From positions 5-64,004 of the forward strand of contig JAPOKA010000007.1 in NCBI GenBank assembly GCA_029977865.1: a stretch of DNA of 64,000 bases, read 5' to 3'. The notes beneath the pieces are model-generated. The model was not told where the DNA came from, ran no database searches, and saw only the letters and a list, made by a program, of their open reading frames with translations. The position numbers were made by a program, and so were the translations under genes. This document shows, piece by piece, positions 3,734 to 42,784 of the stretch. This stretch comes from a bacterium (lineage in GTDB: Bacteria > Planctomycetota > Phycisphaerae > Phycisphaerales > SM1A02). The stretch's first letter is position 1, and every line of letters begins with the position of its first letter.

Positions 3734-3778
3734 CTCGGGAAGATATCGGACGTTTGGCGACCGCAGAACCCAGGACGA

Positions 3779-21781: not shown

Positions 21782-21883
21782 GGGCAGAGAGGGTAGCGGC
21801 GTGGCGATCCGACTCGTTCGCGACGCCAGCCTCGCTCGGGCTGCGGCGACCCCGGTCCGCGTGCCGATGACTCCGCGAGTCCC

Positions 21884-25872: not shown

Positions 25873-25963
25873 TCGGCACCAACTCGACTCCGAGATGGGC
25901 GACGCTTCGACTCGCCGTGCGACAAATCACTCTTGGCAGGCCTGGGCTGCAATACTTTCGGCC

Positions 25964-27733: not shown

Positions 27734-28167
27734 GCGAAGTCCGCCGCCGCTTCGGCGAACTTTGGGTCCAAGGCGATCCCGCCGCCGATCACCGGATGAT
27801 GGGACTGGTCCTTCCGATCTCGCTGGTGGTGCTGGTGTTCGCCTCGGTCGCGCTCGCGCGACGGCCAACTCGACCGCCGCTTCCGCTGGTGGTGGCGGTG
27901 CAGGTCCTGACGCTCGTGGTCGGATTTGGATTCGGCTTCAGCCTGGCCGCGGTCGAGTCGAGTTCTCTGCGCGATGGGTTGGCGGGACTGGTCGAAGCGA
28001 CCGCCTCGGTGTTCGCAGACGACGAAGCCTCCGGATGCGAGCGGGTTCGTCGCGCGTACGTCGAAGGGGTCGACGCGATCGAGGAGGGAGCCGAAGGCGT
28101 CGGGCTGCAGTCGCGGGTCCTGCGAAGCCTCGAGCAATCCTCCGACGAGGCGGTGCCGGGCTCCTAG
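27730..28167 (+). CDS. Hypothetical membrane protein (145 aa)
   Basis: The ATG overlaps the ggt stop (ATGA at 27730). Two TM helices (MMGLVLPISLVVLVFASVALA; LVVAVQVLTLVVGFGFGFSLAAV). Good GC3. Confidence 0.6.
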   Translation: MSEVRRRFGELWVQGDPAADHRMMGLVLPISLVVLVFASVALARRPTRPPLPLVVAVQVLTLVVGFGFGFSLAAVESSSLRDGLAGLVEATASVFADDEASGCERVRRAYVEGVDAIEEGAEGVGLQSRVLRSLEQSSDEAVPGS

Positions 28168-28221: not shown

Positions 28222-29769
28222 ATGCATGAACCCGACTCCCAGACTCGCGATGCCGCCGAGCACTCCGAGCGAGGCTCCGATCCGCTCTCGGTCGCGGGTC
28301 TCGACCGGGATCTCTCGCGGCGATCGGTCCGGGGCGGCGCGTTCGTCATGGCCGGCCAGGGCGGCAGCATCCTCGTGGGTATCGCCTCCGCGGCGGTGCT
28401 GGCGCGGCTGCTCGATCCCGAGGACTTCGGCCTCGTCGCGATGGCGGGCGCGTTCATCGTGCTGCTCGGCGAGTTCGCGGATCTGGGCTTGTCGCAGGCG
28501 ACCGTCCAGCGCCGCGAGGTCACCACCGCGCAGGTCAGCACGCTGTTCTGGGTGAATGTGGGTCTTGGCGCCGCGGCCATGCTGATCGGGTTCGCACTGT
28601 CGTGGCCGATCGGGCTCTTCTACGAGGATGCCCGGCTCGGACCGGTCGCGGCAGCGCTCTCGATCGGCTTCTTCTTCTCGGGCGTGGCGGCGCAGCCGCT
28701 CGCGGTGCTGCGGCGCCGCATGCGCTTCGCCGCAGAGACCACCGTCACGCTGATCTCGCTTGCGGTGGGGCTCCTCGCCGCGATCGTGGCCGCCCTGTCG
28801 GGACTGGGGTACTGGTCGCTGGTGGTGCAGACCCTCGCCACCGCGGCGACACGCATGGCGGGAATGTTCATCGCGAGCGGCTGGATGCCGTCTCGTCCGG
28901 CACGCGCCGAGGGAATTCGCGAGATCCTGCGCTTTGGCGGCTACCTCTCGGGATCGAACCTGATCGCGGCGGTGATCCGGTCGATCGACAAGATCCTCGT
29001 GGGCCGCTTCGTCGGTGCGGACGCCGCGGGCCTCTACTCGAATGCCCAGCGGATCCTGCTCGCACCGGTCACGCAACTCAACAAGCCGCTCACCATGGTG
29101 GCCCGCCCGGCGCTGGCGCGATTGCAGGACGATCCCGAACGCTTTCGCGCCTACTACCGCCGCGGCATCGAAGTGGTCGCCTCCGCGAGCCTGCCCACCA
29201 TCGCGGTCGCGGTGATCATGGCGGGCGATCTGGTGCGGGTGGTGCTCGGCCCCGGCTGGGACGGCGTGGTGCCGATCTTCATGGCGCTGGCTCCGGCAGG
29301 CCTGCTCGCGACCCTTGCCGTCATCACCACCTGGGTCTACGTGCCGCTCGGCCGCACCGACCGCCAGTTCCGCTGGATCTGCCTGCAGTCGATCGGCGTG
29401 GTGGCCGGGATGGCGATCGGATTGCGCTACGGCGCCGTCGGTGTCGCCGCGGGGTACTCGATCGCAGTGGCGTGCCTGCGTGTTCCCGCCATCGCGTGGT
29501 GCCTGAAGGGAACCTTCGTGCGTTGGTCCGATGTGGGCTCGGCGATCTGGCGGCCGCTTCTTGCGACCGCAGTTGCCGCCGCTGCGATCCTTGCGGCGGG
29601 CGGCGCCATCGCTTCGCTCGAGGCTCCGTCGGCGCGGCTTGCCATCGGTGCGTTGGCATTTGCTGCGGTCTACCTCGTGTCCTTCCTCGCCCTCCCCGGA
29701 GGCTTCGCGCGGGCTTCCGCGATCGTGGCGATGGTGCGGCATCTTCGCCCGAACCCAGGGAACCGCTGA
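28222..29769 (+). CDS. Polysaccharide biosynthesis protein, Wzx/MOP-type flippase
   Basis: About 14 TM segments. GIASAAVLARLLDPEDFGLVAM..LADLGLSQATVQR..FWVNVGLG is the pattern of lipid-linked oligosaccharide flippases. Confidence 0.8.
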   Translation: MHEPDSQTRDAAEHSERGSDPLSVAGLDRDLSRRSVRGGAFVMAGQGGSILVGIASAAVLARLLDPEDFGLVAMAGAFIVLLGEFADLGLSQATVQRREVTTAQVSTLFWVNVGLGAAAMLIGFALSWPIGLFYEDARLGPVAAALSIGFFFSGVAAQPLAVLRRRMRFAAETTVTLISLAVGLLAAIVAALSGLGYWSLVVQTLATAATRMAGMFIASGWMPSRPARAEGIREILRFGGYLSGSNLIAAVIRSIDKILVGRFVGADAAGLYSNAQRILLAPVTQLNKPLTMVARPALARLQDDPERFRAYYRRGIEVVASASLPTIAVAVIMAGDLVRVVLGPGWDGVVPIFMALAPAGLLATLAVITTWVYVPLGRTDRQFRWICLQSIGVVAGMAIGLRYGAVGVAAGYSIAVACLRVPAIAWCLKGTFVRWSDVGSAIWRPLLATAVAAAAILAAGGAIASLEAPSARLAIGALAFAAVYLVSFLALPGGFARASAIVAMVRHLRPNPGNR

Positions 29770-29801
29770 CCTCGCGATCGGTCGGTGCCGCGGGCTGGGC
29801 T

Positions 29802-30188
29802 CTAGTGGTGCGAAGGACTTTCGGCAGTCGATGCATCCGTCCGAGTCGGGTCGCTGCCGCCTTGCTCGGCTTCGAGGATGGCCACGTGGCGAACCAGCAC
29901 GGTGAGCTCGCGGCGGACTCGCCGCAGGCGCACGTAGACCAGCAGGAATCCCCAGAAGACCGCGAGCACGAGGAGGTAGAGCAGGAGGTCGGCACCGCGA
30001 TGGATGCCCAGCGCATTGGCGACGGTGGTGACGCGATCCGGCTCGATGGCCGCCAGCCCGCCCACCACGAACGCGGCGACCCAGCAGAGTCCCGCGACAC
30101 GACCGAGGCGGCCGGCCACCACCGCCACCGTCGCGAGCGCCGCAAGCGCTGCGAAACTCGACACGAGGATCCACTGGAAGGGCGTCAT
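29802..30188 (-). CDS. DUF2304 family small membrane protein (usual GT2 partner)
   Basis: 128 aa with 4 TM segments. ALGIHRGADLLLYLLVLAVFWGFLLVYVRLRR is characteristic. It lies 12 nt downstream of the GT2 gene on the same strand. Confidence 0.75.
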   Translation of the reverse strand: MTPFQWILVSSFAALAALATVAVVAGRLGRVAGLCWVAAFVVGGLAAIEPDRVTTVANALGIHRGADLLLYLLVLAVFWGFLLVYVRLRRVRRELTVLVRHVAILEAEQGGSDPTRTDASTAESPSHH

Positions 30189-30200
30189 GGCGAACTCGGA

Positions 30201-30980
30201 CTAATCGAGGATGCGGCCGACAAGGTAGTGGAAGAGGATGCGAAATCCACCGGTCCAGCGCTGGCCCTTCTCTCGCGAGTACTCGTCGTAGCGGATATGG
30301 ACGGGAATCTCCTCGACGCGAAGTCCGCTGCGGGCGATGAGATCGATCAGCTCGCTTGCGTGAGCCATGCGGTCGGCGGTGATCTCGAGTCGCTCGGCGG
30401 CCTCGCGTGAGAAGACCCGCAGACCGTTGTGCACATCCGAGAGCTCGATGCCGCTGCAGACTCGGTGAAAGAGGACCGCCGACTTGAGCAGCAGCCGCCG
30501 GCCCGCCGGCACGTTCGAGCCGCGATCGGCGAATCGGTTTCCGAGCGCAATGTCGCAGGCACCGTCGGCCACTCGCTCGACCATGCGCTCGAGGTCGCGC
30601 ACGTCGTGCTGGCCGTCGGCGTCGAAGTGGGCGATGCGCCGGGCGCCGCGAGCGAGCGCAAATGCGGTGCCGGTCTGCAGAGCCGCCCCCTGACCGCGAT
30701 TGACGAGGTGCCTGAGCAGCCAGGTCGCATGGGGCCTCGCCGCCTCGACCGAGTCGTCGGCGGAGCCGTCATCGACGACCACCACATTGGCGAACCGACG
30801 ACGCAACCCCTTCAGGACCCGCGCGATCACCGCCGCCTCGTTGTAGAGAGGCACCACGACCCAGGTCTCCGAGTCCCGTAACTCGGTCTCGCGTGGGCAG
30901 GGAGGTTGCTGAGGGTTGACAGCCACGATTGGACGATAGCCCCGATTTCCAGAGAGTCTCCGCGGCCGGTTGGGATCCAT
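30201..30980 (-). CDS. Glycosyltransferase family 2, polyprenyl-phosphate sugar synthase-like (DPM1/GtrB/ArnC type)
   Basis: VVVPLYNEA, VVVDDGSADDS, NRGQGAALQTG, FDADGQHD. The ATG 30980 start is uncertain: in-frame GTG 30926 avoids overlap with the divergent gene, and GC3 upstream of it is low. Confidence 0.85.
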   Translation of the reverse strand: MDPNRPRRLSGNRGYRPIVAVNPQQPPCPRETELRDSETWVVVPLYNEAAVIARVLKGLRRRFANVVVVDDGSADDSVEAARPHATWLLRHLVNRGQGAALQTGTAFALARGARRIAHFDADGQHDVRDLERMVERVADGACDIALGNRFADRGSNVPAGRRLLLKSAVLFHRVCSGIELSDVHNGLRVFSREAAERLEITADRMAHASELIDLIARSGLRVEEIPVHIRYDEYSREKGQRWTGGFRILFHYLVGRILD

Positions 30981-32925
30981 GAGTCACGCCGAAACACAGC
31001 CGATACAGCCGCGCGGCGAGCGTCGGATAACCAGCGACGCCGCCGGCGCACATTGGCGACGGTGGCTGATGCTGGCGGTGTTGATCCTCGCCAACGTCGT
31101 CGCCTGGCGCAGCACTCTCGAGGGTCGATTCGTCTTCGACGACGTGGTGATCCTCGTCGAGGGCGAGAAGCGGCTCGCCGAGCCCTGGCCGTTGTCGCGG
31201 AGCCTTCGCTTCGAGCAGCGGCCCCTGACCTGGATCACCTTCGCGCTCAATCACGCTGCGGGTGGTCTCGAGCCCCGCGGCTATCGCCTGGTGAACCTCG
31301 TTCTTCACCTCGCGGCGGCGGTGCTGCTCTTCGCGGCGGTGCGCGAGGGCGTGCGCCACCGTCCGAGGCAATCCGAGCCGACCAATCCCGAACACGATTC
31401 GCGCCGGGCCGACTGGATCGCCCTCGCGACCGCGCTCTTGTGGTCGTTGCATCCACTCGCGACCTCTGCGGCCGGATACGTGGTGCAGCGTGCGGAGGTC
31501 CTGGTCGCGGTGTGGACCATGGCCGCGGCGTATGCGCTCCTGCGCAGTCTCCGCAGCAGCACGCCGGCAGCCTGGCTCGCGGCGATGTCGACTTCGGTGG
31601 TGCTGGCGATCCTCTCCAAGCCGACCGCGGTGTTCCTGCCGCCGCTCCTTCTGGTGATCGACTGGTGCTTGTCGCAAGATCGCCTCGGCTCGATCGCCGC
31701 TCGCCGCGGGTGGGCGCATGGCGTGAACTTCGCAGCGGTGCTGCTTCTCGTCCCGCTTGGCGTGATCGGCGGGCTCGCCGCCACCGATGCCGGACCCACC
31801 GGCGCCGGGATGGGAGTCGCGGGCACTTCGCCGCTCGATTACGCGCTGGTGCAGATACGCGCCATCGGCCTCTACATCGAACTCTGCTGGTGGCCGGTCG
31901 GACTGTCGATCGACCATGGCGCCTCGGCCCTGGCGCCGACGCGACTTGCCTGGATCGGCGGCGCGGCGCTTCTCGTCGCCACCTTCGCCTCGTTGGCCGG
32001 TCTGGTGGGTCGGCGGTGGTGGGGGGTGATTCCCGCGATGCTGCTTCTCTCGCTCGCGCCCTCGTCGAGCGTGGTGCCGGTCGCAGACCCGGTCGCCGAG
32101 CATCGCATGTACCTGCCCCTGATCGCGGTGACGCTTGCGGTCTCGTGCGGCATGGCTGCGTTGGTATCTGCGCTTGGTCGCGGCAGCCCGGCGCGAGGCC
32201 GGGTGGCGGCGGTGTCGGCGATCGCGGCGCTGGCGGCGGTGGCGACCGCGGAGGGGATTCGAACCCACCGCCGCTGCGGCGACTATGCGCAACCGGCCGC
32301 GCTGTGGAGCGAGGTGCTCGACCGCCGGCCCGATGATCTGAGAGCGCTCTTGAATCGCTCGCAGGCCTTGATCGAAGCGGGTGACCCCGAAGCCGCGGAG
32401 GCGGACCTCGAACGGGTGCAGCGGCTCGCACCCGGCGATCCGCGGGTACTGCTCAATCGCGCCATCCTCGAGATCGAGTCCGGCGACGCGGAGTCGGCGC
32501 TGCCGCGCATCGAACTCGCGATCGCGGCCTTCCCGCGCCTCGCCGCCGGCCACGCTGCCCGGGGCGATGCGCTGCGGATGCTCGGGCGACCGCTCGAGGC
32601 GATCGAGAGCTATCGCCGCGCCGAACGCTGGCGGCCGACCGAGCCTCTGCTGCCGCTCTCCCGTGGCAATGCCCTTGCCGAACTTGGAAGCCTCGACGAG
32701 GCCGCGGCGGCCTTTGCACTCGCAGCGAAGCTCGCCGACGCAGCCGGCGAACCGTCGGTGGCGGCGAGCGGGTGGTTCAATCTCGGCAACATGCACTTCA
32801 TCGCCGAGCGCTACCTCGAGTCCGTGGCCGCCTACGACGAGGCACTTGCCCGCGAGCCGGACCACGCCGAGGCGCAGCATTGGCGGGCGGAGGCGTCGGC
32901 GCTTGCCGAGGGAGCGTCGCCGTGA
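30979..32925 (+). CDS. GT-C-like membrane glycosyltransferase (TMTC/DUF1736-like) with C-terminal TPR repeats
   Basis: ATG 30979 (the track used TTG 30970). FVFDDVVIL, QRPLTWITFALNHAAGGLEPRGYRLVNLVLHLAAAVLLF and AEHRMYLPLI, with about 11-12 TM segments. TPR units follow (LIEAGDPEAAEADLERV, GRPLEAIESYRRA, ERYLESVAAYDEAL). Confidence 0.8.
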   Translation: MSHAETQPIQPRGERRITSDAAGAHWRRWLMLAVLILANVVAWRSTLEGRFVFDDVVILVEGEKRLAEPWPLSRSLRFEQRPLTWITFALNHAAGGLEPRGYRLVNLVLHLAAAVLLFAAVREGVRHRPRQSEPTNPEHDSRRADWIALATALLWSLHPLATSAAGYVVQRAEVLVAVWTMAAAYALLRSLRSSTPAAWLAAMSTSVVLAILSKPTAVFLPPLLLVIDWCLSQDRLGSIAARRGWAHGVNFAAVLLLVPLGVIGGLAATDAGPTGAGMGVAGTSPLDYALVQIRAIGLYIELCWWPVGLSIDHGASALAPTRLAWIGGAALLVATFASLAGLVGRRWWGVIPAMLLLSLAPSSSVVPVADPVAEHRMYLPLIAVTLAVSCGMAALVSALGRGSPARGRVAAVSAIAALAAVATAEGIRTHRRCGDYAQPAALWSEVLDRRPDDLRALLNRSQALIEAGDPEAAEADLERVQRLAPGDPRVLLNRAILEIESGDAESALPRIELAIAAFPRLAAGHAARGDALRMLGRPLEAIESYRRAERWRPTEPLLPLSRGNALAELGSLDEAAAAFALAAKLADAAGEPSVAASGWFNLGNMHFIAERYLESVAAYDEALAREPDHAEAQHWRAEASALAEGASP

Positions 32926-34001
32926 CCGCGGTCCGCGATGTGACCCTGGTGATTCCCGCTCGTGACGCCATGCGAACGATCGAGCGCTGCCTCGATGCGG
33001 CGATCGCGGTTCGCGACCGAACCGGTTCGCGGCTGGCGCGGATCCTGCTTGTCGACGACGGCTCGCGCGACGGGACTGCGGCAGCCGCGGCGGCTCGGGG
33101 GATCGAGGTGCTGAGCGGTTCGGGCAGCGGTCCGGGTGCCGCAAGGAACCTCGGATGGCGGGCGGCGACGACGCCACTGGTGTGGTTCGTCGACAGCGAC
33201 TGCGTGTGCGAGCCGGAGTCGCTTGAGCGGCTTCTTCCGCATCTTCTCGATCCGCAGGTCGCCGGCGTGTCGGGCACCTATTCGATTGCGAACGACGCCT
33301 CGCTTCTCGAGCGGCTGATCCACGAGGAGATCATGGTGCGGCATGCCCGCATGCCCGAGGAGACGGACTTCCTCGCGACCTACGACGTCGTCTATCGCCG
33401 CGAAGTGCTCGAGGCGCTTCAAGGCTTCGACGAGCGCTATCTCAAGGGCCAGGACGCGGAACTGGCGTTTCGCGTGCTCGAGGCGGGCCATCGCCTGCGC
33501 TTCGAACGCGGTTCGCGGGTGATGCACTTCCATGCCGATCGGCTTTCGCGATACCTCAAGGTCCAGCGGCAGCAGGGGTACTGGCGGGTGGCGCTGCACC
33601 TCGCGCATCCCGGCCGCGGCAGCAACCGCTACAGCGGCACGCTCGACCACCTGCAGCCGTTCGTCGCGGCAGCGGTGGGGCCGGCGGTGATCGCGGCGAT
33701 CGTGATGACGATCTGGTTCGATGCGGTTCGCGGCAGCGCGAATGATGGCGTCGCGTGGTTGTCGCCGCTGACGGGGTGGATCCTGCCGGCCGCGCTGGTT
33801 GCGATGCTCCTCTTGATGCAGCTGCCGATGGCGCTCGCGATGGTGCGCCGTGCGGGCAGTGAGATGGTGTGGTTCGTGCCGCTTGGAGCGATTCGGGCGT
33901 GCTGGCGTGCGATGGGCCTCGTGCAGGGCGTTGCCGATCGAATGCTCGGCCGCGGCGCGATTTCGGCGAAGGCCCTCCCCCAAGCCGGAGGAACCGCCTG
34001 A
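32922..34001 (+). CDS. Glycosyltransferase family 2 with C-terminal TM segments
   Basis: GTG 32922 overlaps the upstream stop (GTGA). LVIPARD, LLVDDGSRDGT, FVDSDC, QRQQGYWRV, then TM helices (PFVAAAVGPAVIAAIVMTIWF; ILPAALVAMLLLMQLPMALAMV). Confidence 0.85.
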   Translation: MTAVRDVTLVIPARDAMRTIERCLDAAIAVRDRTGSRLARILLVDDGSRDGTAAAAAARGIEVLSGSGSGPGAARNLGWRAATTPLVWFVDSDCVCEPESLERLLPHLLDPQVAGVSGTYSIANDASLLERLIHEEIMVRHARMPEETDFLATYDVVYRREVLEALQGFDERYLKGQDAELAFRVLEAGHRLRFERGSRVMHFHADRLSRYLKVQRQQGYWRVALHLAHPGRGSNRYSGTLDHLQPFVAAAVGPAVIAAIVMTIWFDAVRGSANDGVAWLSPLTGWILPAALVAMLLLMQLPMALAMVRRAGSEMVWFVPLGAIRACWRAMGLVQGVADRMLGRGAISAKALPQAGGTA

Positions 34002-36709: not shown

Positions 36710-37692
36710 TCGCTTCGAGCGGGTCGCCCGCCGCGGCTTGGCGCGCAGACGCCCTCGACGAGACCGAACCCGTAGGCGATCCAGCGTCGTCCCCGGACTC
36801 GCATCGCGGTGCCACCGAGGATGCCTGCGATGGCGGTCGCGCCGCCGAGGGGAATCCACACCGCGGCCTTGCAGAGACAGACCAGGTTCGCCCGCAACGG
36901 ACCGTGGAGGTCGCGCTCGATCAGCGGCACGCACCGGCCGACCGTGCGAAGCCGCGAGACCAGCCAAGCGGCGGTGGTCCGGCGAGGATCGATCGACTCG
37001 ATCACCACGGCGTCGTTCGCCCACGCGATGCGGGCACCCGATCGGGCCAGCCGGGCGAAGAAGTGGCGATCCTCGCCGAGCCGGAGGAAGGAGTCGTCGA
37101 ACCAGCGATCGAGGCGGGAAAGCAGCGCCGCGTCGAAGAGGATGTTGTTGGTGAAGGCCCACGGCCGAGTGGTGCCGGTCGGGAAGGACTGTCGCGCGAA
37201 GAACCCGCCTCTCGCGACCCACCGCGGCGGCGCCTCTTCGAAGCGCGGCTCGACGGGTCCGGTGACGATGTCTGCGCGGTGTTCTCGCTTCACCTTGAGG
37301 AGTTCGGCCAGCCAGCCCGCGGGCGCGATCTCGTCGTCGTCGATGAATCCGATGAGTCCGCGGTCTCCCACGATCTCGCGGGCGACGGCGAGGCCGCGGT
37401 TTCGTGGCGGTGCGATGCCGCGCTGTGGTTCGTCGTGCACCGCCACCGCCATGCCGGTCCGCTCGGCCACCGCGATCGCGGCCTGCCGAGGCGCCGGGTC
37501 CTGTGGGTCGTTGTTGACGACGACTGCGCAGAGCAGGAACGGATCCGCCGCAGACGGCTGTTGCTGCGCGAGGCTCTCGAGCGTGCGGGCGAGGCCCTCC
37601 GCGCGATGAAGGGTCGAGATCGAGATCGCGATCCGCACCGGACCGGTTCCGGCGTGTCGCTCGTTCGGGGCGTGATCGAGCTCAGCCGCCAT
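36703..37692 (-). CDS. Glycosyltransferase family 2
   Basis: Track ORF trimmed to ATG 37692. VRIAISISTLHRAEGLARTLESL, FIDDDE, GEDRHFFARLARSGARI. Paralog of the gene immediately upstream. Confidence 0.8.
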   Translation of the reverse strand: MAAELDHAPNERHAGTGPVRIAISISTLHRAEGLARTLESLAQQQPSAADPFLLCAVVVNNDPQDPAPRQAAIAVAERTGMAVAVHDEPQRGIAPPRNRGLAVAREIVGDRGLIGFIDDDEIAPAGWLAELLKVKREHRADIVTGPVEPRFEEAPPRWVARGGFFARQSFPTGTTRPWAFTNNILFDAALLSRLDRWFDDSFLRLGEDRHFFARLARSGARIAWANDAVVIESIDPRRTTAAWLVSRLRTVGRCVPLIERDLHGPLRANLVCLCKAAVWIPLGGATAIAGILGGTAMRVRGRRWIAYGFGLVEGVCAPSRGGRPARSDH

Positions 37693-38626
37693 GGTGGGTT
37701 CGATACTCCTCGTGCTGCGCGAGGCCAAGGGCGCCGGCGGCGAGGCCACGGGCCTTGGCAAGATCCTGCAGGCACGCAACCGCGGCGCCGCTCAGGCCGC
37801 GACGGGCGAGTCCGGTGATGAATCGGAACGGCCCCCGCAGGAGATAGCGGAAGGCGAGCCAGAGCAGTCCGGTCCTTCCTCGCTCGCCGAGGTCGCGGGC
37901 GATCCAGGCATCGGTGGCGCCGATGCGGTAGGCCCGCTGCCTCGCCCAGGCGATCGTCAGCCGACTCGCGGGAGTCCATTCGCGACAGATCGCCTCGCGG
38001 CACCACACGATTCGACCTCCCGCGCGTGCGAGCCGCGAGAAGAAGTGGGTATCGCTGCCGCCGGTCATGGCGAGGCGTTCATCGAAGCGAAGGTTCAACC
38101 GACGAATCGCCTCGGTGCGGACCAGCACGTTGTGGGTGAAGGCGGTCGGCCGCGCCGTGCCGGTCGGGAAGTCGAGGCAGTCGAATGCGCCGCTGCCGTG
38201 GGCCCAACCCGGCAGGGTGGCGTCACGCTCGAAGGCGGCGAGGGCGGGACCGGTCACCGCGTCGGCGGCGGTGTGGGAAAGGGTCGCCACGAGTTCCCGA
38301 AGCCACGACGGATCGGCGGTCTCGTCGTCGTCGATGAACGCCACCGCGTCGACCGAGGAGTCTCCCTCGCCTGCGAGCGCCAACTCGAGCACGCGATTGC
38401 GTGCCGCCGGGATGCCGAGCCTCGGCTCGAAGCAGCGTGTCAAGGGAAGCGAGCAGGGCGGCATCGAGCCGATTCCCGGCGGATCGTCGTTCTCGACGAG
38501 CAGCACTTCGACTTCGAGGTTTTCGGACCTTGGCCCGGCTGCGAGTTCGAGGTGCCCGAGCGATTCGAGCAGCCTCGCGAGTCCTTGCGGACGTCGCCGG
38601 GTGATCACGCCGATTGCGATCCGCAT
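37682..38626 (-). CDS. Glycosyltransferase family 2
   Basis: MRIAIGVITRRRPQGLARLLESL, FIDDDE, GGSDTHFFSRLARAGGRI. The stop overlaps the next GT2 start by 11 nt. Confidence 0.8.
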   Translation of the reverse strand: MRIAIGVITRRRPQGLARLLESLGHLELAAGPRSENLEVEVLLVENDDPPGIGSMPPCSLPLTRCFEPRLGIPAARNRVLELALAGEGDSSVDAVAFIDDDETADPSWLRELVATLSHTAADAVTGPALAAFERDATLPGWAHGSGAFDCLDFPTGTARPTAFTHNVLVRTEAIRRLNLRFDERLAMTGGSDTHFFSRLARAGGRIVWCREAICREWTPASRLTIAWARQRAYRIGATDAWIARDLGERGRTGLLWLAFRYLLRGPFRFITGLARRGLSGAAVACLQDLAKARGLAAGALGLAQHEEYRTHHGG

Positions 38627-38683
38627 GCGGGGTCCGTTGCCGGAAAGAGCCTTCGTTCGAGTGTACCGTCGCCCTGTCTCGCC

Positions 38684-39844
38684 ATGGATCAGACGCTGAA
38701 CAGTCGCGCCTCACCGTCGCCTCCGCGGCTCTCGGTGGTGCTGCCCACCTGTGATCGGCGCGAGCAGACGATTCGTTGCGTGCAATCGCTGCTCGCCCAG
38801 TCGATCGCAGCGCGGTCGGGTGAGCTCGAGATCGTCGTGGTCGACGATGGCTCCGCCGATGGCACCGCCGAGGCGATCGAGTCGCTCGCCGAGACGAGCC
38901 CAGTGGCGGTGCGGGTGCTCCGCAATCCGAAGAACCTCGGCGCGAATGCCAGCCGCAACCGTGGCGTGCAGGTGGCGCGGGGACCGTTGATCGCCTTCCT
39001 CGATTCCGACTGCGAGGCGGACCCCGACTGGCTCGAGCGGCTTGCGGCAGTGTTCGACGATCGCCGGGTCGGCGCAGCCTCGGGACTGGTCGAGGACCTC
39101 TGCCGCGGCAATCTCTGGGAACTCGCCTTCTGCGGCACCCATCGGCTTCCCAGACGCGGGGACGCCTCACGCTTCACCTCCTGCAATCTCTGTGTTCGTC
39201 GCGAGCTGCTCGCAGCGCATGCCTGGGAGGAGGACTTCTCGAACGCCGCGGTCACCGAGAGCGGACGTGCCGACACCAGCTTCTCGGGCCGCTGCGACGA
39301 AGAAGGCCTCTATCTCGCGATTCGGGCGGCCGGGTGGAGCGTGGTGGCCGAACCGTCAGCGCGGCTCGTCCATCGGCATCCCTATACGGCGCGGAGCTTC
39401 CTGCGGCAGGCCTGGCACGGCGGACGCGCCGCCGCCGAACTGGTGTGGAAGTTCAGGCTGCGCGATCGGCTCGATGTGGCGCCCTTCGCGCTGACGGCAC
39501 TCGCGGCGCTGGCAGCGATTGCCTTGGCGCTGCTGCTCGAGCCGCCGTGGTCTGCATGGACCTGGCTCCTTCCCTTGCCTCCGCTTGCCGCCGGGATCGC
39601 CGCGGTCTGCTGGAACGAGACCGCCAACAAGGGAAAGTCGTGGTTTGAACTCCTCCGCACGGCACCGGCGCTGGCGATCTACTACTTCCTGCGGACCGGC
39701 GGCTACTGCCTCCGACGCATCGGGCTGTGGTGCGGACGAGGCTCGATCCGCCGCATCGCGCCCGGCTCGCTCGGCCGCACCATGCCCAAGCCGCCAGCAC
39801 CTCCGACGATTCCCGCCACCGCCTGCGCGGGGGCCTCGCCATGA
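38684..39844 (+). CDS. Glycosyltransferase family 2 with C-terminal TM segments
   Basis: C-terminal part of track ORF 37691..39844, starting at ATG 38684. LSVVLPTCDR, VVVDDGSADGT, FLDSDC, LRQAWHGG, then TM helices. Confidence 0.8.
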   Translation: MDQTLNSRASPSPPRLSVVLPTCDRREQTIRCVQSLLAQSIAARSGELEIVVVDDGSADGTAEAIESLAETSPVAVRVLRNPKNLGANASRNRGVQVARGPLIAFLDSDCEADPDWLERLAAVFDDRRVGAASGLVEDLCRGNLWELAFCGTHRLPRRGDASRFTSCNLCVRRELLAAHAWEEDFSNAAVTESGRADTSFSGRCDEEGLYLAIRAAGWSVVAEPSARLVHRHPYTARSFLRQAWHGGRAAAELVWKFRLRDRLDVAPFALTALAALAAIALALLLEPPWSAWTWLLPLPPLAAGIAAVCWNETANKGKSWFELLRTAPALAIYYFLRTGGYCLRRIGLWCGRGSIRRIAPGSLGRTMPKPPAPPTIPATACAGASP

Positions 39845-40704
39845 GCGGGCCGCGATCGTGGTCGCTGCCGCGCGATGGCGGCATGTACCCGCCACCGCCT
39901 CCGCCGGGCTCGGCGGGTTGGGCCTTGCGAGCGGCGCGACGCCGTGTCGCGGACGCCTCTCGCCGCGCCGCTGCCGCCGGAGTGCTGCGGCCGGGCAGGC
40001 TGCCGTCCTTTCTCGGCATCGGAGCGCAGAAGTCCGGCACCACCTGGCTGCACGCGAACCTCTCTGCGCATCCGGAGATATTCCTGCCCGAAGCGAAGGA
40101 GCTTCACTGGCTCGACTGGAACTGGCATCGGACGCCGCGAGCCTACGCACGCTGGTTCGAGGCAGCGGGTGATCGCCTCGCCGGCGAGATCACGCCGGCC
40201 TATGCGATCGCCGATTCCGCGCGGATTCGCGCTGCCGTCGCGGTCCTGCCGGAAGTTCGCGCGATCTACCTCGTGCGCGATCCGGTCGAGCGAGCCTGGT
40301 CGCAGGCGGTCATGAACCTCCACCGCCACGGCGAGGTCGCTCCCGACGAGGCGACGCTGCTCGAGCATCTCGCGAGCGAGCCGGTCCTCGCCCGCAGCCG
40401 CCACAGCAGCGCCATCGACCGCTGGTCCGAAGCGATCGGCCAAGAGCGGCTGCTCATCGGGTTCTTCGAGGAGGTCGGCTCGGACCCCGAGGGCCTGCTG
40501 CGGCGAACACTGCGGTTTCTCGGCGTCGATCCCGATCCCGAGGTCGAGTTCCCGCTGCGGAGGGTGGTGAATCGCGGCGACGGGGTCGAGATGCCCGAGG
40601 CCGCCCGCCGACTGCTGGTCGATCGGCTCGCCGACGAGCTGATCGAACTGGAACGCCGCTTCGGCGAGCCAGCCGCCGGATGGCGGGCAAGGTGGTGCCC
40701 ATGA
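39841..40704 (+). CDS. Sulfotransferase (PAPS-dependent type)
   Basis: The ATG overlaps the upstream stop (ATGA at 39841). 5'-PSB-like GAQKSGTTWL and 3'-PB-like YLVRDPVERAWS. 287 aa. Confidence 0.8.
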   Translation: MSGPRSWSLPRDGGMYPPPPPPGSAGWALRAARRRVADASRRAAAAGVLRPGRLPSFLGIGAQKSGTTWLHANLSAHPEIFLPEAKELHWLDWNWHRTPRAYARWFEAAGDRLAGEITPAYAIADSARIRAAVAVLPEVRAIYLVRDPVERAWSQAVMNLHRHGEVAPDEATLLEHLASEPVLARSRHSSAIDRWSEAIGQERLLIGFFEEVGSDPEGLLRRTLRFLGVDPDPEVEFPLRRVVNRGDGVEMPEAARRLLVDRLADELIELERRFGEPAAGWRARWCP

Positions 40705-41564
40705 GCGAGCCGACCCCGGGACTTCGGCTGCGGCTCTATCGGATCCGCGAGTCGCTTCGCGATTCGTGGCAGGCTCTGCGGGCGCAGCCCCACGAGGATC
40801 CCGTCTTCGTGCTCGGCACGCAGAAGTCGGGGACCTCCGCGATCGCAGGGCTGTTGGGTATCGCTACCGGCCTTCCCGCAGCGATCGATCTGAAGCGCGA
40901 CCTCGACTACGCCCGGGCGCCGGAGGTCGCGGAGGGACGGCGTCCGTTCTCGGCATTCCTCCGCCGCCACGCGGCCGCGTTTGCCTGCCCGATCGTGAAG
41001 GAACCCAACCTCACCTTTCTGGTGTCGTTCCTGCTTGGGCGCTGGCCGCAGGCGCGGCTGGTGTTCGTGGTGCGAGATCCGGTGCAGACGGTCCGCAGCG
41101 TGCTCGACCGACTTGGACTTCCGGGCGAGCTCGATCGGCTCGAGCCATCTCGCCTCGAGGGTCTTCCGCGGAGTTGGTCCGCGGTGCTCGACAGCCGTTG
41201 GTGTGAGCACGCCATCGCCGGTGGAGATCCCGATCGACCGCTGTTTCACCCGGTCGAGGAGCTCGCGCGGCGTTGGCGGATTGCGCGTGAAGTCGCCCGC
41301 TCGACGCAGCAGGCCCGACCCGATCGCACGCACCTGATCGAGTACGAGCGCTTCCGCGTCGCCAAGGAGGCGTCGATCGCGGCGCTCGCGGTGCAGTTGG
41401 GACTCGAGGTTCGTGATCGCGACGGTCTCGCGGCAGCGGTCGATCGGCCCTTCCAGCCGCCTGGCGCTGCGGCCGCGATGCCTCCGGCTCGCTTCTTCGG
41501 CCCGAACCTCGAGCGGCTCATCTCCGCCGCAGGGCTCGACGCCGAGTCGGAGCCGCTGCCATGA
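40701..41564 (+). CDS. Sulfotransferase (PAPS-dependent type), second copy
   Basis: ATGA overlap at 40701. GTQKSGTSAI and FVVRDPVQTVRSV. 287 aa. Confidence 0.75.
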   Translation: MSEPTPGLRLRLYRIRESLRDSWQALRAQPHEDPVFVLGTQKSGTSAIAGLLGIATGLPAAIDLKRDLDYARAPEVAEGRRPFSAFLRRHAAAFACPIVKEPNLTFLVSFLLGRWPQARLVFVVRDPVQTVRSVLDRLGLPGELDRLEPSRLEGLPRSWSAVLDSRWCEHAIAGGDPDRPLFHPVEELARRWRIAREVARSTQQARPDRTHLIEYERFRVAKEASIAALAVQLGLEVRDRDGLAAAVDRPFQPPGAAAAMPPARFFGPNLERLISAAGLDAESEPLP

Positions 41565-42784
41565 AGGTGCTGGTCGTCACCGGTGGATTCCCGCTCGCCT
41601 CGGAGACCTTCGTCCGTGCCCAGTGCAGCGGACTGCTGGCCGCTGGATGCGATGTCGAGGTCCTGGCCCTGCGACCCGGGGACGGCAGCGACTTCGACGA
41701 GCAGGAACGAAGCCTCGGCTTGCCCGCGCGGGTGCGGGCGGCGAGCCTCGACCGCCCGCTCGCTGCGAGGCTCCTCCGAGCGCCGCTGCGGGCTGGACGC
41801 ATCGGACTGCAGTCCCCTGCCGCGGCGTGGAAGTCGGTGTCGCCCTGGTCGGGATGGCGGGCCTCGAGCGGTCGGCTGCTCGAGGCGTTTGCGGCGCTTG
41901 GCGATGGAGCGATCCCGCGGCGATACGACATCGTCCATGCCCAGTTCGGGCCGAGCGGCATCGTGGCCAGCGAGCTTCGCCGCGCCGGGCTGATCACCGG
42001 CCGGTTGAGCGTTGCGTTCTACGGCTACGACATCACCCGAGAGCCACGGCTGCGCGGTTCGGCCATGTACGAGCGGATGTTCGAAGACGCGGAGTGGATC
42101 CTGCCCAACTCCGCCTATCTCGCGGGCCTGCTGCGCGAGGCAGGCGCTCCGGCGGAGAAGGTCTCGGTGCACCGGCTCGGCATCGACACCGATCGCTTTC
42201 CCTTCTGCGACCGCAGCGGCCGCGACGAGTCCGGTCCATGGCGCGTGGTGGCGGTGGGGCGGATGGTCGAGAAGAAGGGATTCGAGTTTCTGATTCGGGC
42301 AATCGCCCGTCTCGGTGACCTGCCGAACTTGAAGGCGACGATCGTGGGCGATGGACCGTTGCGACCGGAGCTGGCGCGACTGGCCGAGGACCTCGCGGTC
42401 GGGGATCGAATCGAGCTGCCCGGCTGGCTCGACCACGCGGAGGTCGGTGCGGTGCTGTCCGGGGCCGACTGCTTTGCGGCGCCGAGCGTGGTGGCAGCCG
42501 ACGGGGACATGGAGGGGCTTCCCCTGGTGGTGGTCGAAGCGATGGCGACCGGACTTCCGGTGGTCGGCACCCGCCACAGCGGGATTCCGGAGGCGGTTCG
42601 GCCCGAGGTCAATGGACTGCTCGTCGAGGAACGAGATGTGGAAGGGCTGGCCGAAGCCCTCAGAGGGCTGGCGAGCCCTCTGACGCGGCTGAAATGGGGT
42701 CGAGAGTCGAGGGCGATCGCGGAGCGTGACTTCTCGCATCCGAGGTTGATTGATCAACTACTGAAGCGGTGGTCAGTGGTCTGA
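41561..42784 (+). CDS. Glycosyltransferase family 4 (GT-B, group 1)
   Basis: ATGA overlap at 41561. MKVLVVTGGFPLASETF, GRMVEKKGF, EGLPLVVVEAMATGLPVVGTRHSGIPE (EX7E). Confidence 0.85.
   Translation: MKVLVVTGGFPLASETFVRAQCSGLLAAGCDVEVLALRPGDGSDFDEQERSLGLPARVRAASLDRPLAARLLRAPLRAGRIGLQSPAAAWKSVSPWSGWRASSGRLLEAFAALGDGAIPRRYDIVHAQFGPSGIVASELRRAGLITGRLSVAFYGYDITREPRLRGSAMYERMFEDAEWILPNSAYLAGLLREAGAPAEKVSVHRLGIDTDRFPFCDRSGRDESGPWRVVAVGRMVEKKGFEFLIRAIARLGDLPNLKATIVGDGPLRPELARLAEDLAVGDRIELPGWLDHAEVGAVLSGADCFAAPSVVAADGDMEGLPLVVVEAMATGLPVVGTRHSGIPEAVRPEVNGLLVEERDVEGLAEALRGLASPLTRLKWGRESRAIAERDFSHPRLIDQLLKRWSVV

Follow-up and report, generated by a model that had tools for sequence, protein, structure and literature searches.

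A conserved Planctomycetota locus with a probable role in sulfated-glycan synthesis and extracytoplasmic glycosylation

Gene content and organization of the locus

We analysed a block of 12 genes (g1 to g12) at positions 28222-42784 of the window, the whole 64-kb stretch of DNA under study. The same gene models were obtained by GC3 frame analysis, Pfam, NCBIfam and independent gene calls (ENA and Logan assemblies of the same sequence). The initial annotation had counted 13 genes and seven glycosyltransferases; there are 12 and six (five GT2 and one GT4), and the body text of that annotation itself sums to 12. Profile-HMM annotation with Pfam and NCBIfam confirmed its gene classes, namely a flippase, a DUF2304 protein, a polyprenyl-phosphate-type GT2, a membrane/TPR protein pair, glycosyltransferases and two sulfotransferases. 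The tight junctions are exact (GTGA at 32922; TGATG ending at 34001; ATGA at 39841, 40701 and 41561; an 11-nt overlap at 37682-37692 on the minus strand). Translationally coupled operons had been proposed on this basis and the overlaps stand, but both strands are used and the block splits into five transcription units (g1; g3-g2; g4-g5-g6; g8-g7; g9-g12) rather than a single operon. The reported lack of a phosphoglycosyl transferase (PGT), Wzy, Wzz/PCP, Wza/OPX and PAPS-synthesis enzymes also holds at the Pfam level, with none found among about 45 window ORFs scanned; these cover the window apart from 62541-63998, a partial ORF, and some segments lacking a convincing ORF. No recognised ligase or oligosaccharyltransferase was found in the locus.

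The first gene, g1 (28222-29769, plus strand), encodes a MOP-superfamily (Wzx-type) flippase of 515 aa with about 11 TM helices (Pfam Polysacc_synt_3, 5e-81; NCBIfam MOP flippase, 2.8e-62, under the equivalog cutoff). On the minus strand, g3 (30201-30926) encodes a soluble PpgS/GacI-like GT2 with no predicted TM helices. It is a predicted polyprenyl-phosphate HexNAc (or hexose) synthase (NCBIfam PpgS, 4.2e-68), although its score of 229 bits is below the equivalog cutoff of 370. AglJ was its second NCBIfam match, and the closest solved structures were dolichol-P-mannose synthase 5mlz (2.5e-9) and then ArnC. Its start is probably the GTG at 30926, giving 241 aa (alternatives 30980 and 30857); the homologues are 238-244 aa long. 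Lying 12 nt downstream in the same orientation, g2 (29802-30188) encodes a small DUF2304 membrane protein with three TM helices (Pfam DUF2304, 2.6e-15; 57 bits, cutoff 25.5). The DUF2304 proteins GacJ and Rv3632 stimulate GacI and PpgS, and by analogy g2 would be a partner of this type for a polyprenyl-phosphate glycosyltransferase.

Two multi-pass membrane proteins with TPR tails follow on the plus strand. The gene for the first, g4 (30979-32925; upstream start alternative at 30970), is divergent from g3-g2. Pfam matched only the TPR repeats of g4 itself, and its membrane domain had no direct match by Pfam, PDB sequence searches or Foldseek. However, it carries all the motifs of the TMTC/PMT clan, including the periplasmic DD, and the family-invariant residues match the TMTC motifs DD, RP, HPLxTE, K(E)T, D(W/R) and E-H-R-M-Y. 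A PMT_2 match was recorded for about 10 of the 120 listed homologues, several of which JGI labels 'protein O-mannosyl-transferase'. The architecture, a multi-pass membrane domain with a C-terminal TPR domain (AF2 model pLDDT 91.6), is that of TfpW, a pilin glycosyltransferase that modifies protein. Motifs and architecture support g4 as a TMTC/TfpW-like GT-C-type enzyme.

For g6 (34001-36709), a DUF6541-related membrane protein, a GT-C-type enzyme is supported by the modelled fold (AF2 pLDDT 84.5, pTM 0.79). The best non-TPR Foldseek match was AftA (8if8_B, E 9.8e-5, 780 columns, TM 0.54), with DPY19 (7zlh/7zli) as further best matches; both enzymes transfer single sugars, and the acceptor of AftA is a glycan. 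In the model, a disordered acidic loop (about 373-442) accompanies an alpha/beta domain on the periplasmic side and a TPR domain at the C terminus, and an invariant loop (124-168) holds GADARIH, LDPF and YHTN. One homologue (P0132) scored 55 bits with Pfam DUF6541 (cutoff 29). The family is small, with only 54 homologues found; all source names given were planctomycete. The GT-C assignment first suggested for the pair is thus borne out by motifs for g4 and by fold for g6.

The remaining glycosyltransferases are distributed over three transcription units. Located between the two GT-C genes, g5 (32922-34001, plus strand; Pfam Glycos_transf_2, 5e-23) is a GT2 with C-terminal TM helices and is, by its GTGA and TGATG junctions, translationally coupled to both. 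Its closest solved relatives were GalT1, PglI and chondroitin synthase, not polyprenyl-phosphate glycosyltransferases. On the minus strand lie g7 (36703-37692; Glycos_transf_2, 2.3e-11), a GT2 with a C-terminal hydrophobic helix, and g8 (37682-38626; Glyco_trans_2_3, 4.5e-9), also a GT2; the 11-nt overlap joins the start of g7 to the stop of g8. A 717-aa plus-strand ORF over g8 was rejected, as GC3 favours the minus-strand frame. The plus-strand operon g9-g12 begins with g9 (38684-39844; Glycos_transf_2, 5.7e-32), a GT2 with C-terminal TM helices whose closest solved relatives were chondroitin synthase (3e-15), heparosan synthase B and ppGalNAc-transferases. It ends with g12 (41561-42784), a GT4 of the GT-B, retaining type (Glyco_trans_1_4, 2.9e-35; Glycos_transf_1, 1.1e-33), which meets g11 at an ATGA junction.

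Both sulfotransferases are encoded in this operon. The predicted PAPS-dependent, carbohydrate-type enzyme g10 (39841-40704; Sulfotransfer_3, 1.7e-16; Sulfotransfer_1, 4e-12) carries the motifs GAQKSGTTW (61-69), KELHWLDW (86-93) and VRDPVERAWS (145-154). The second of these aligns with NEVHFFDW of 3-OST-1, and g10 bears the Glu/His/Asp motif typical of heparan-sulfate 3-O-sulfotransferases; its PDB matches were 3rnl (1.6e-13) and heparan-sulfate 3-OST (1e-8). The divergent PAPS-type g11 (40701-41564; Sulfotransfer_3, 3.2e-11) contains GTQKSGTS (39-46) and VRDPVQTVRS (124-133), and a catalytic Glu/His motif was not recognisable in its sequence. Loss of PAPS-binding residues had been named beforehand as evidence against a sulfation locus; a motif check found these residues retained in both proteins. 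Both are intact and lack a signal peptide and any convincing TM helix; sulfation would therefore have to be cytoplasmic, on a lipid-linked or soluble intermediate.

Directly downstream of the block, outside the region first annotated and missed there, lies a gene for a secreted protein (42997-43965, plus strand). Besides a signal peptide, it shows a PxNDD[FY] motif that is invariant in the ortholog alignment, a region rich in Ser and Gly, a pair of dockerin-like Ca-binding repeats and an insert of about 210 aa. Dockerin_1 reached the Pfam cutoff in three of the five orthologues tested, and the window protein scored 20.7 bits, below the cutoff of 22.9. The PxNDD[FY]-dockerin module occurs in a single copy in the window, and the protein is a candidate acceptor or docking cargo.

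Conservation across Planctomycetota

The locus is syntenic in 35 species-level genomes, all of them MAGs of Planctomycetota and mostly of Phycisphaerae, and its gene neighbourhood is strongly conserved. All 14 loci that had full flanks contained g2-g9 and g12. The best-conserved protein among related loci was g5 (50-81% identity), and g7, g8 and g12 are each conserved in relatives. A sulfotransferase was seen in every related locus whose flanks sufficed for looking. The g10 type was present in 17 related loci, in 10 of them in tandem with a g11 homologue; it occurred in 11 of the 14 full-flank loci, and the other three had a Sulfotransfer_2 homologue instead. A reduced locus (L008) retains DUF2304, a GT2, both GT-Cs, a further GT2, a sulfotransferase and PA14 proteins. 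Orthologues of the PxNDD[FY]-dockerin protein adjoin 17 of the 35 loci, and giant PA14 proteins flank about 20. Within 10 kb, the annotated gene calls of five relatives contain no PGT, Wzy, PCP or OPX.

The least conserved part of the locus was g1. Ten related loci carry it intact, an internal deletion of about 147 aa splits it in the nearest relative (L009), an ABC_membrane/ABC_tran transporter takes its place in L007/L024/L026-28, and no flippase was found within 10 kb in L029/L042/L043. Because it is broken in the nearest relative, the role of the flippase is uncertain.

Proposed function and alternatives

We tentatively read the block, at a little under an even chance, as a lineage-specific, lipid-carrier-dependent envelope or surface glycosylation locus and not as a Wzx/Wzy exopolysaccharide pathway. 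It probably makes a sulfated glycan and also transfers sugars on the outer side of the cell membrane, perhaps to secreted surface proteins from adjoining genes. In the known three-component scheme (GacI/J/K/L; PpgS/Rv3632/Rv3779; Gtr), extracytoplasmic glycosylation proceeds from a polyprenyl-monophosphate sugar, and the GacI/GacJ pair operates with a Wzx-family flippase (GacK) and a GT-C (GacL). The locus resembles these systems in its DUF2304 protein, PpgS-like GT2, GT-C and MOP-family flippase. Such a scheme would account for the absence of Wzy, PCP and OPX, and the 'non-canonical polymerisation and export' proposed in the initial annotation need not be invoked; the locus would be, as we infer its function, a new variation on known machinery.

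From the observed gene content, motifs, folds, synteny and co-conservation, we infer the substrates, the order of steps, the division of labour between the GT-Cs and the acceptor as follows. The synthase g3 and its partner g2 would form a polyprenyl-monophosphate sugar, probably HexNAc, at the cytoplasmic face of the membrane. The membrane-associated GT2s g5, g7, g8 and g9, with the GT4 g12, would build a short glycan on a lipid carrier, and g10 and g11 would sulfate two positions of it, for which the tandem sulfotransferases Agl30/Agl31 of Halobacterium, acting on a lipid-linked glycan, provide a precedent. The flippase g1 (an MsbA/PglK-type ABC transporter in some relatives) would move lipid-linked sugar across the membrane. 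Once flipped, the donor sugar would be used by one or both of g4 and g6, whose C-terminal TPR domains would face the periplasm and pick the acceptor. The likeliest acceptors would be the secreted dockerin-like-module proteins beside the locus family-wide, the PxNDD[FY] protein here and PA14/LamG giants in relatives, and the product would be a sulfated glycoprotein. Gene neighbourhood makes these proteins possible acceptors; they could equally bind the glycan rather than carry it. Counting against this reading, the locus has no initiating PGT, PAPS synthesis or recognised ligase/oligosaccharyltransferase and so offers no evident link between the cytoplasmic and periplasmic modules, and GT-Cs such as GacL, Gtr and AftA also decorate polysaccharides.

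A sulfated secreted or capsular heteropolysaccharide, made from repeat units that the GT2/GT4 enzymes assemble on undecaprenyl-PP and that Wzx flips after their sulfation, with a TPR membrane protein as unconventional polymerase and export by unlinked or unknown components, is in our judgement unlikely. The flippase, six glycosyltransferases and sulfotransferases do resemble the synechan, Vibrio/Cobetia capsule and Pontiella clusters, g9 is nearest to chondroitin/heparosan synthases and g10 to heparan-sulfate sulfotransferases. Emb/Aft-type GT-Cs also make polymers outside the membrane, AftA is the best structural match of g6, and TfpW may oligomerise sugars. However, no PGT, Wzy, PCP/Wzz or OPX/Wza was found among the window ORFs scanned or within 10 kb in the five annotated relatives. 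The nearest relative has Wzx only as a pseudogene, and others have lost or replaced it while keeping the rest of the locus. The DUF2304/PpgS-like pair and the TPR-tailed GT-Cs mark polyprenyl-P monosaccharide transfer and not en-bloc polymerisation, and the studied TPR-tailed GT-Cs (TfpW, TMTC1-4) modify proteins. We give a similarly small chance to GacIJKL/Gtr-type decoration, in which g4 and g6 would add the g3/g2 sugar as side chains to a polysaccharide or lipopolysaccharide whose backbone comes from the linked GT2/GT4 enzymes or elsewhere, and the dockerin/PA14 neighbours bind or use the glycan. The closest characterised DUF2304 systems attach GlcNAc to group A carbohydrate and GalN to arabinogalactan, three-component systems likewise modify Gram-negative O antigens, and AftA has a glycan acceptor. 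PA14, Lectin_C and LamG are carbohydrate-binding modules, and a sulfated glycan, being anionic, could be a docking site for the dockerin-like Ca-binding repeats. On the other side, both GT-Cs share TPR tails with the protein-modifying TfpW and TMTC, and such tails are not reported for GacL; we know of none in Gtr or Rv3779. The invariant PxNDD[FY] and Ser/Gly-rich linker of the small co-conserved protein also resemble a modification site, and Ser/Thr-rich protein segments are glycosylated by streptococcal GtrB and a GT-C.

An archaeal-Agl-like pathway is very improbable. Here g3 would initiate, and the whole oligosaccharide would be assembled and sulfated on polyprenyl monophosphate with no need for a PGT and flipped by the MOP or ABC transporter; g6, as a novel type of oligosaccharyltransferase, would then transfer it en bloc. 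All annotated loci lack a linked PGT, the second-best NCBIfam match of g3 is AglJ, and g7, g8 and g9 weakly match AglG, but the Agl matches fall far under the cutoffs and a PGT may just be encoded away from the locus, as is usual for WecA. The interchangeable Wzx-type and PglK-type ABC transporters both flip lipid-linked oligosaccharides, and Halobacterium has sulfated dolichol-phosphate-linked N-glycans and two sulfotransferases. However, AftA and DPY19 transfer single sugars, and we know of no bacterial oligosaccharide pathway on polyprenyl monophosphate.

The initial annotation had proposed a sulfated extracellular polysaccharide or glycoconjugate. The polysaccharide is less likely, because export machinery is not linked in the window or the five annotated relatives, Wzx is broken in the nearest relative and the studied TPR-tailed GT-Cs act on proteins. 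A sulfated glycoconjugate, as in the surface glycosylation that we favour, is reasonable, since the PAPS-binding residues are kept, the genes are co-conserved and the membrane/TPR proteins are of GT-C type; none of the contrary in-silico findings named at the outset, such as loss of these residues or of co-conservation, was made. The accompanying statement that bacterial sulfated glycans are rare was too strong, as Synechocystis, Vibrio, Cobetia and the PVC bacterium Pontiella provide described cases of sulfated capsules or exopolysaccharides with linked sulfotransferases.

Gene content and layout of the locus

The GC content was about 69% across the whole window, so mechanical ORF lists were full of spurious frames. 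Frames were picked by third-position GC, each gene was then checked with Pfam and NCBIfam, and the gene models were compared with independent calls on the identical sequence from one ENA and two Logan assemblies. This gave 12 genes (g1 to g12, in window order) between 28222 and 42784, where the initial annotation had counted 13, and six glycosyltransferases (GTs) where it had counted seven. The gene junctions that it had quoted were all exact, and its observation was essentially right except for the gene count.

The genes lie in five transcription units on both strands. The first is g1 (28222-29769, +), a MOP/Wzx flippase gene, and the second is g3-g2, encoding a PpgS-like GT2 (g3, 30201-30926, -) and a DUF2304 protein (g2, 29802-30188, -). 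The third unit, g4-g5-g6, encodes a membrane protein with TPR repeats (g4, 30979-32925, +), a GT2 (g5, 32922-34001, +) and another membrane protein with TPR repeats (g6, 34001-36709, +). Two GT2 genes form the fourth, g8-g7 (g8, 37682-38626, -; g7, 36703-37692, -). The fifth runs from a GT2 gene (g9, 38684-39844, +) through two sulfotransferase genes (g10, 39841-40704, +; g11, 40701-41564, +) to a GT4 gene (g12, 41561-42784, +).

A sigma-70 promoter scan returned 0 promoters and a terminator scan stayed at chance level. There was no compositional sign of horizontal transfer, with the block at 68-70% GC and the flanks alike. The remainder of the window holds housekeeping genes and the planctomycete hallmark families PSCyt1/PSCyt2/PSD1 and DUF1501. 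The earlier remark that genes for Wzy, PCP, OPX, phosphoglycosyl transferase (PGT) and PAPS synthesis were missing held for the scanned ORFs of the 64-kb window. Among the called genes of the five related loci with annotated gene calls (L004-L008), none encoded a PGT, Wzy, PCP/Wzz or OPX/Wza; such genes could be unlinked elsewhere in the genome.

Conservation of the locus in planctomycetes

We scanned one genome per species with strict peptide patterns, which may miss distant members, and found 35 related loci. All were in Planctomycetota metagenome-assembled genomes (MAGs), mostly Phycisphaerales, from lakes and the ocean, with no cultured strain. Samples in which these MAGs are present include Lake Mendota, Lake Erken and ALOHA. 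The same gene order was seen at g6 identities from 69% down to 34%. The neighbourhood check suggested in the initial annotation showed that the block is syntenic in relatives, with g2-g9 and g12 present in 14/14 loci whose flanks reached about 10 kb on either side. With 54 clusters, the g6 family is small, and all of the given source names were planctomycete.

A g10-type sulfotransferase was found in 11 of these 14 full-flank loci. The remaining three (L026-L028) were of the type of locus L007 and carried a homologue of the L007 Sulfotransfer_2 protein, an MsbA/PglK-type ABC transporter and a methyltransferase. The tandem g10+g11 pair was also present in 10 related loci, and many loci had a third sulfotransferase beside DUF2304 (L005 5031-5927, L004 4321-5313). 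A reduced variant, L008, kept DUF2304, the GT2, both GT-Cs, one further GT2 and a sulfotransferase. Since a sulfotransferase was kept even in L008 and in the L007-type loci, sulfation appears to be a constant of the system.

The flippase was more variable in its presence. Wzx was intact in 10 related loci, at two different positions; it was replaced by an ABC transporter in four, and in three there was none within 10 kb. The nearest relative, GCA_964614695.1, had a split Wzx orthologue that lacked the middle ~147 aa (L009 2634-3191 and 3294-3818), and its fragments are the L004 genes 2650-3045 and 3776-4324, annotated as two short hypothetical proteins. This split Wzx is probably a pseudogene; a MAG assembly error is possible.

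Some relatives carried additional genes. Between g6 and the g8-g7 pair, the L007 variant (L007 6641-12389; likewise L024 and L026-L028) carried genes for one more GT2, a Sulfotransfer_2 enzyme, an MsbA/PglK-type ABC transporter, a methyltransferase and two 281-aa proteins of unknown kind, and these loci had neither Wzx nor g10/g11 sulfotransferases. A 408-aa protein without a Pfam match, 57-60% identical among marine relatives and not found in the window, was encoded beside the locus in many relatives (L005 3762-4988, +; L008 12525-13751, +). A 136-aa gene call between the sulfotransferase and GT4 genes of GCA_002709295.1 (L005 17863-18273, -) was rejected as a miscall, being antisense to a full-length homologue of the g11 type that was 43% identical over residues 1-277. 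It resembles the annotation errors typical of high-GC genomes.

A predicted donor module of the GacI/GacJ type

The g2 protein matched DUF2304 (Pfam 57 bits versus a cutoff of 25.5), with three TM helices; its gene lies 12 nt from g3 and was co-conserved in every full-flank locus. The g3 protein is a soluble GT2. Its nearest NCBIfam model is PpgS, the polyprenyl-phospho-GalNAc synthase of mycobacteria (4.2e-68), but a score of 229 bits, against an equivalog cutoff of 370, means that g3 is no PpgS orthologue. It also matched AglJ and ArnC in NCBIfam, and its closest solved relatives were dolichol-phosphate-mannose synthase (DPMS) and ArnC. From sequence, g3 is predicted to load a single sugar onto polyprenyl phosphate, as the GT2 synthases of three-component systems do. 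The g2/g3 pair has the GacI/GacJ and PpgS/Rv3632 arrangement.

The three-component scheme consists of a polyprenyl-P-sugar synthase, a flippase, which can be of the MATE/MOP type, and a GT-C (PMC11127046). The GT-C part is represented in the window by g6, through its fold, and by g4, through a DD motif after TM1 and other PMT-clan motifs. Pfam and NCBIfam identified g1 as a MOP/Wzx protein and candidate flippase of the scheme. Streptococcal GtrB and a GT-C carry out O-glycosylation of Ser/Thr-rich protein segments, so the scheme is able to target bacterial proteins. We also considered g5 as a second polyprenyl-phosphate GT feeding g6 and found no support for this, as its relatives were ordinary elongating GT2s and ArnC matched at only 19.8 bits.

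Two known systems come close to this arrangement. In Streptococcus pyogenes GacI/J/K/L, a DUF2304 activator likewise lies beside the soluble GT2 that synthesises polyprenyl-P-HexNAc, and the window has candidates for all four roles in g3, g2, g1 and g4/g6. GacJ (DUF2304) binds GacI and lowers the Km for undecaprenyl phosphate from 18.7 to 1.1 uM, and GacK, of the Wzx family, is the proposed flippase of GlcNAc-P-Und. However, whereas GacIJKL makes the GlcNAc side chain of the group A carbohydrate, the window locus has two mutually unrelated TPR-tailed GT-Cs, five more cytoplasmic GTs and two sulfotransferases, its host is diderm, and its candidate acceptor is possibly a protein.

Mycobacterium tuberculosis PpgS (Rv3631)/Rv3632/Rv3779 likewise has a DUF2304 partner, Rv3632, which stimulates PpgS, and a GT-C that uses the polyprenyl-P-sugar outside the membrane. 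AftA, the best structural match of g6, belongs to the same mycobacterial world of cell-wall GT-Cs. In contrast to this system, which places GalN on arabinogalactan, the window has no arabinogalactan context, and sulfotransferases are present in the window locus only. We know of no TPR tails in the mycobacterial PpgS/Rv3779 system.

Two unrelated TPR-tailed proteins of probable GT-C type

The membrane parts of g4 and g6 gave no Pfam match even at E<=1, and comparison of both membrane domains with PDB chains by sequence, including a 16-sequence g4 profile, gave nothing meaningful. The possibility that the two proteins are paralogues was rejected, with an hhalign profile-profile probability of 1.2% and no detectable homology.

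The AlphaFold model of g6, built with 38 homologues, had a pLDDT of 84.5 and a pTM of 0.79. Its best Foldseek match in the PDB besides TPR-only matches was AftA (8if8_B, E 9.8e-5, 780 aligned columns, TM 0.54), and the next non-TPR match was the C-mannosyltransferase DPY19 (7zlh/7zli). Both are GT-C enzymes that use polyprenyl-monophosphate sugars. Two g6 homologues matched DUF6541 (PF20176): P0132 (43% identity) scored 55 bits versus a cutoff of 29, and P0169 matched along residues 11-639 at 25.5 bits, under the cutoff. Our literature search found no paper mentioning DUF6541. A loop of 45 residues in g6 (124-168), containing GADARIH, LDPF and YHTN, was nearly invariant.

The g4 model had a pLDDT of 91.6, and with the full-length model the top 50 Foldseek matches listed were all TPR proteins, which filled the list. 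Pfam matches to TPR_2, TPR_1, TPR_16 and others covered residues 433-641, and the TPR solenoid of the AF2 model began at about residue 439. Residues D54 D55, R81 P82, H158 P159, K214, D228 and E374/R376/Y378 were invariant in 16-45 homologues. These lie in motifs (DD just after TM1, RP, HPLxTE, K(E)T, D(W/R) and E-H-R-M-Y) that make up the TMTC/PMT-clan set, compared here with the published TMTC motif list (PMC7801869). Two TM helices separate the ERxxY-type loop from the TPR domain, as they do in TMTCs, which argues for a periplasmic position of the TPR domain.

Of 120 homologues listed for the g4 membrane domain, about 10 had a PMT_2 match on record, and several are labelled 'protein O-mannosyl-transferase' by JGI. 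Among 16 g4 homologues we found single sub-threshold matches only (PMT_2 5e-4, TMEM260-like 0.11, TMTC_DUF1736 0.3). As no PMT_2, PMT or TMTC_DUF1736 match was significant, we term g4 'TMTC-like' and not a member of these families.

TMTC1-4, the eukaryotic cadherin O-mannosyltransferases of the GT-C/PMT clan, have the DD, RP, HPxxTE, KET, D(W) and ERxxY-type motifs in common with the g4 family, and in both the TPR domain lies on the non-cytoplasmic side. They differ in that g4 has no TMTC_DUF1736 or PMT_2 match and that its gene shares a locus with those of a dedicated putative donor synthase and of sulfotransferases; the g4 donor is probably not Dol-P-Man. A bacterial comparison is TfpW, the Pseudomonas aeruginosa pilin D-arabinofuranosyl transferase, which has 646 aa, 11 predicted TM helices, as TMTCs also have, and a periplasmic DDX motif. 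It uses a polyprenyl-P sugar and glycosylates pilin, which is encoded next to tfpW. The comparison was one of architecture: TfpW and g4 are of near-equal size (about 646-648 aa) and have in common a cytoplasmic N-terminus, a periplasmic DD(X) after TM1 and a periplasmic C-terminal TPR. TfpW belongs to a DPA pathway, whereas the donor module of the window is predicted to be of the HexNAc/hexose type.

In other phyla, where nearby homologues were named Verrucomicrobia or Opitutales, the g4 family occurred in tandem arrays of three to five paralogues (L044 11-9868, L045 6001-12636 and one further contig), reminiscent of TMTC1-4. These arrays outside Phycisphaerae had no DUF2304/GT2 donor-synthase neighbour, so the coupling to a dedicated donor module appears specific to this type of locus.

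Sulfotransferases

Loss of the PAPS-binding residues from the sulfotransferase-like proteins had been named as a result that would refute the proposed pathway. The residues were not lost: the 5'-phosphosulfate loop (xxKxGTT/S) and the 3'-phosphate motif RDPxxRxxS were both kept in g10 (GAQKSGTTW, 61-69; VRDPVERAWS, 145-154) and g11 (GTQKSGTS, 39-46; VRDPVQTVRS, 124-133), and both proteins exceeded the Pfam Sulfotransfer_1/3 cutoffs. The g10 protein matched the bacterial sulfotransferase structure 3rnl (1.6e-13) and also heparan-sulfate 3-O- and N-sulfotransferases (1e-8 to 3e-5). Its KELHWLDW segment aligned with NEVHFFDW of 3-OST-1, the site of the catalytic Glu and His in the 3-OST family. 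A catalytic-base motif of this carbohydrate type (heparan-sulfate 3-OST/NST) was found in g10 only; the sequence of the divergent g11 contained no recognisable catalytic-base motif.

Neither g10 nor g11 had a signal peptide or a convincing TM helix, so sulfation would have to take place in the cytoplasm, where PAPS is. For PAPS supply, no ATP sulfurylase or APS kinase gene was found in the 64-kb window.

Two adjacent sulfotransferases are also found in Halobacterium salinarum, where Agl30 sulfates one sugar of a glycan on protein and Agl31 another. They are a precedent for a sulfotransferase pair with such a substrate. The Halobacterium N-glycan is assembled on a lipid carrier. Unlike the window, that system is archaeal, uses dolichol phosphate and transfers the glycan by the AglB/STT3 oligosaccharyltransferase.

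Secreted proteins encoded beside the locus

The gene directly 3' of g12 (42997-43965, +), which the initial annotation did not list, encodes a secreted protein with a signal peptide, the motif LPVNDDYRAS, a Ser/Gly-rich stretch, a ~210-aa insert and two dockerin-like Ca-binding repeats. It was the only module of its kind in the 64 kb. Small orthologues of 110-140 aa adjoined the locus in 17 of the 35 related loci (for example L036 19963-20346, L013 21247-21732 and L017 2765-3130, -), and most loci lacking one were truncated contigs. These proteins showed a signal peptide, an invariant PxNDD[FY], a ~25-aa Ser/Gly/Pro-rich linker and one or two dockerin-like repeats, mostly ending in WGxC; the ~210-aa insert between motif and repeats was found in the clade of the window. 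Dockerin_1 was at or above the Pfam cutoff in 3/5 orthologues tested.

Secreted giants of 700-1500 aa with PA14/LamG/Lectin_C domains and the same terminal repeats flanked about 20 of the 35 loci (L005 447-3734, -, and 20390-22658, +; L008 4451-6556, -, and 13970-17608, +), but not the window locus.

Two further ideas on substrates were considered. C-glycosylation by g6 of the WGxC Trp in the dockerin-like repeats was set aside because the partner protein of the window is without the Cys and AftA was a better match to g6 than DPY19. A prepilin-type (N_methyl) protein at ~44204-45196 was rejected as a TfpW-style substrate, being conserved in the two closest relatives only.

Proposed mechanism and alternative products

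We favour a cell-surface glycoconjugate as the product of the locus, with the dockerin-module proteins as the leading candidate acceptors. The genes would form a lipid-carrier glycosylation system with two halves. In the periplasmic half, g3 and g2, as a GacI/GacJ-type pair, would make a polyprenyl-P-sugar for the GT-Cs, and the TPR tails would choose the acceptor. In the cytoplasmic half, the membrane-anchored GT2s and the GT4 would extend a lipid-linked glycan, which g10 and g11 would sulfate before flipping. We only infer which sugar and which acceptor are used, how g4 and g6 share the work, and by what route the cytoplasmic glycan would reach its final site.

Of the parts of a classical Wzx/Wzy polysaccharide pathway, the locus has a Wzx flippase (g1). 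We consider such a polysaccharide less likely because PGT, Wzy, PCP and OPX were missing from the scanned ORFs of the window and from the called genes of L004-L008, because Wzx is dispensable in some relatives and because the characterised TPR-tailed GT-Cs act on proteins. Decoration of a polysaccharide is a serious alternative; GacL, a GT-C, adds its sugar onto polyrhamnose outside the membrane. A sulfated EPS with unlinked export is another serious one. The Synechocystis xss/synechan cluster, the Vibrio and Cobetia CPS clusters and the GAG-like cluster of Pontiella, also a PVC bacterium, resemble the window in having PAPS-type sulfotransferases among GT2/GT4 genes and a Wzx-type flippase, and their published descriptions, as far as covered here, make no mention of a DUF2304 donor module or TPR-tailed GT-Cs. 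Synechan and the Vibrio and Cobetia capsules depend on Wzy/PCP/OPX or ABC export components, whereas none of these was linked at the window locus. The earlier interpretation, a sulfated extracellular polysaccharide or glycoconjugate with non-canonical polymerisation and export, is supported in part: the PAPS-binding motifs are kept and the genes are co-conserved, and of the two products that it named we favour the glycoconjugate.

A bolder form of the glycoconjugate reading would make this the first bacterial sulfated protein O-glycosylation system, with g4 and g6 attaching the sulfated glycan to secreted dockerin-module proteins and the periplasmic TPR domains recognising the small PxNDD[FY] protein and the PA14 adhesin-like giants. 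We think this unlikely. Its strongest version would have the glycan built on polyprenyl monophosphate from the PpgS-like enzyme, in an archaeal-Agl-like manner with no PGT needed, and g6 as a new class of oligosaccharyltransferase.

Each component of the locus is of a known kind. The novelty lies in their conserved combination, in which two unrelated TPR-tailed GT-Cs, one of them related to an uncharacterised DUF family, occur with a DUF2304 donor module, a dockerin-module partner and between one and three sulfotransferases. This combination is confined to uncultured planctomycetes, mostly Phycisphaerae (35 loci), and is undescribed within the reach of our literature searches. Planctomycetes are consumers of sulfated algal polysaccharides and have many sulfatases. 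To our knowledge, little is known of the glycans that they make themselves, or of the function of the widespread bacterial TPR-tailed TMTC-related GT-Cs. The locus, conserved in freshwater and marine Phycisphaerae, gives such GT-Cs a defined genomic context of donor module, elongating GTs, sulfotransferases and candidate acceptors. If the product is a glycoprotein, the locus would be the bacterial equivalent of TMTC-type glycosylation, would add a case of sulfated glycans on bacterial proteins and would give DUF6541 a first function. A polysaccharide product would make abundant planktonic Phycisphaerae producers of sulfated glycans besides degraders, which would bear on carbon and sulfur cycling. 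Under either reading, the parts are small enough for heterologous reconstitution.

Other features of the window

Upstream of g1, a 145-aa small hydrophobic protein without a Pfam match is encoded at 27730-28167 (+), with 64% identity over half its length in L009, and its start has an ATGA overlap with the stop of a gamma-glutamyltranspeptidase gene (25856-27733). Another GT4 gene (55438-56571, +) is directly followed by a glutamine-dependent asparagine-synthase homologue (56579-58432), a pairing often seen in glycan-modification loci; this pair lies 13 kb from the block and was not conserved together with it. A tyrosine recombinase gene (Phage_integrase; 21884-22909, +) overlaps the N-terminal part of an opposite-strand ORF (20573-22837, -). 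The ABC ATPase match of this ORF was confined to residues 373-533, and the actual ABC gene is therefore probably far shorter. A single 708-aa ORF at 17075-19201 (+) joins chorismate mutase, prephenate dehydratase, ACT and DAHP-synthase (family I) domains, so that two enzymes of the phenylalanine branch are fused to the one that opens the shikimate pathway.
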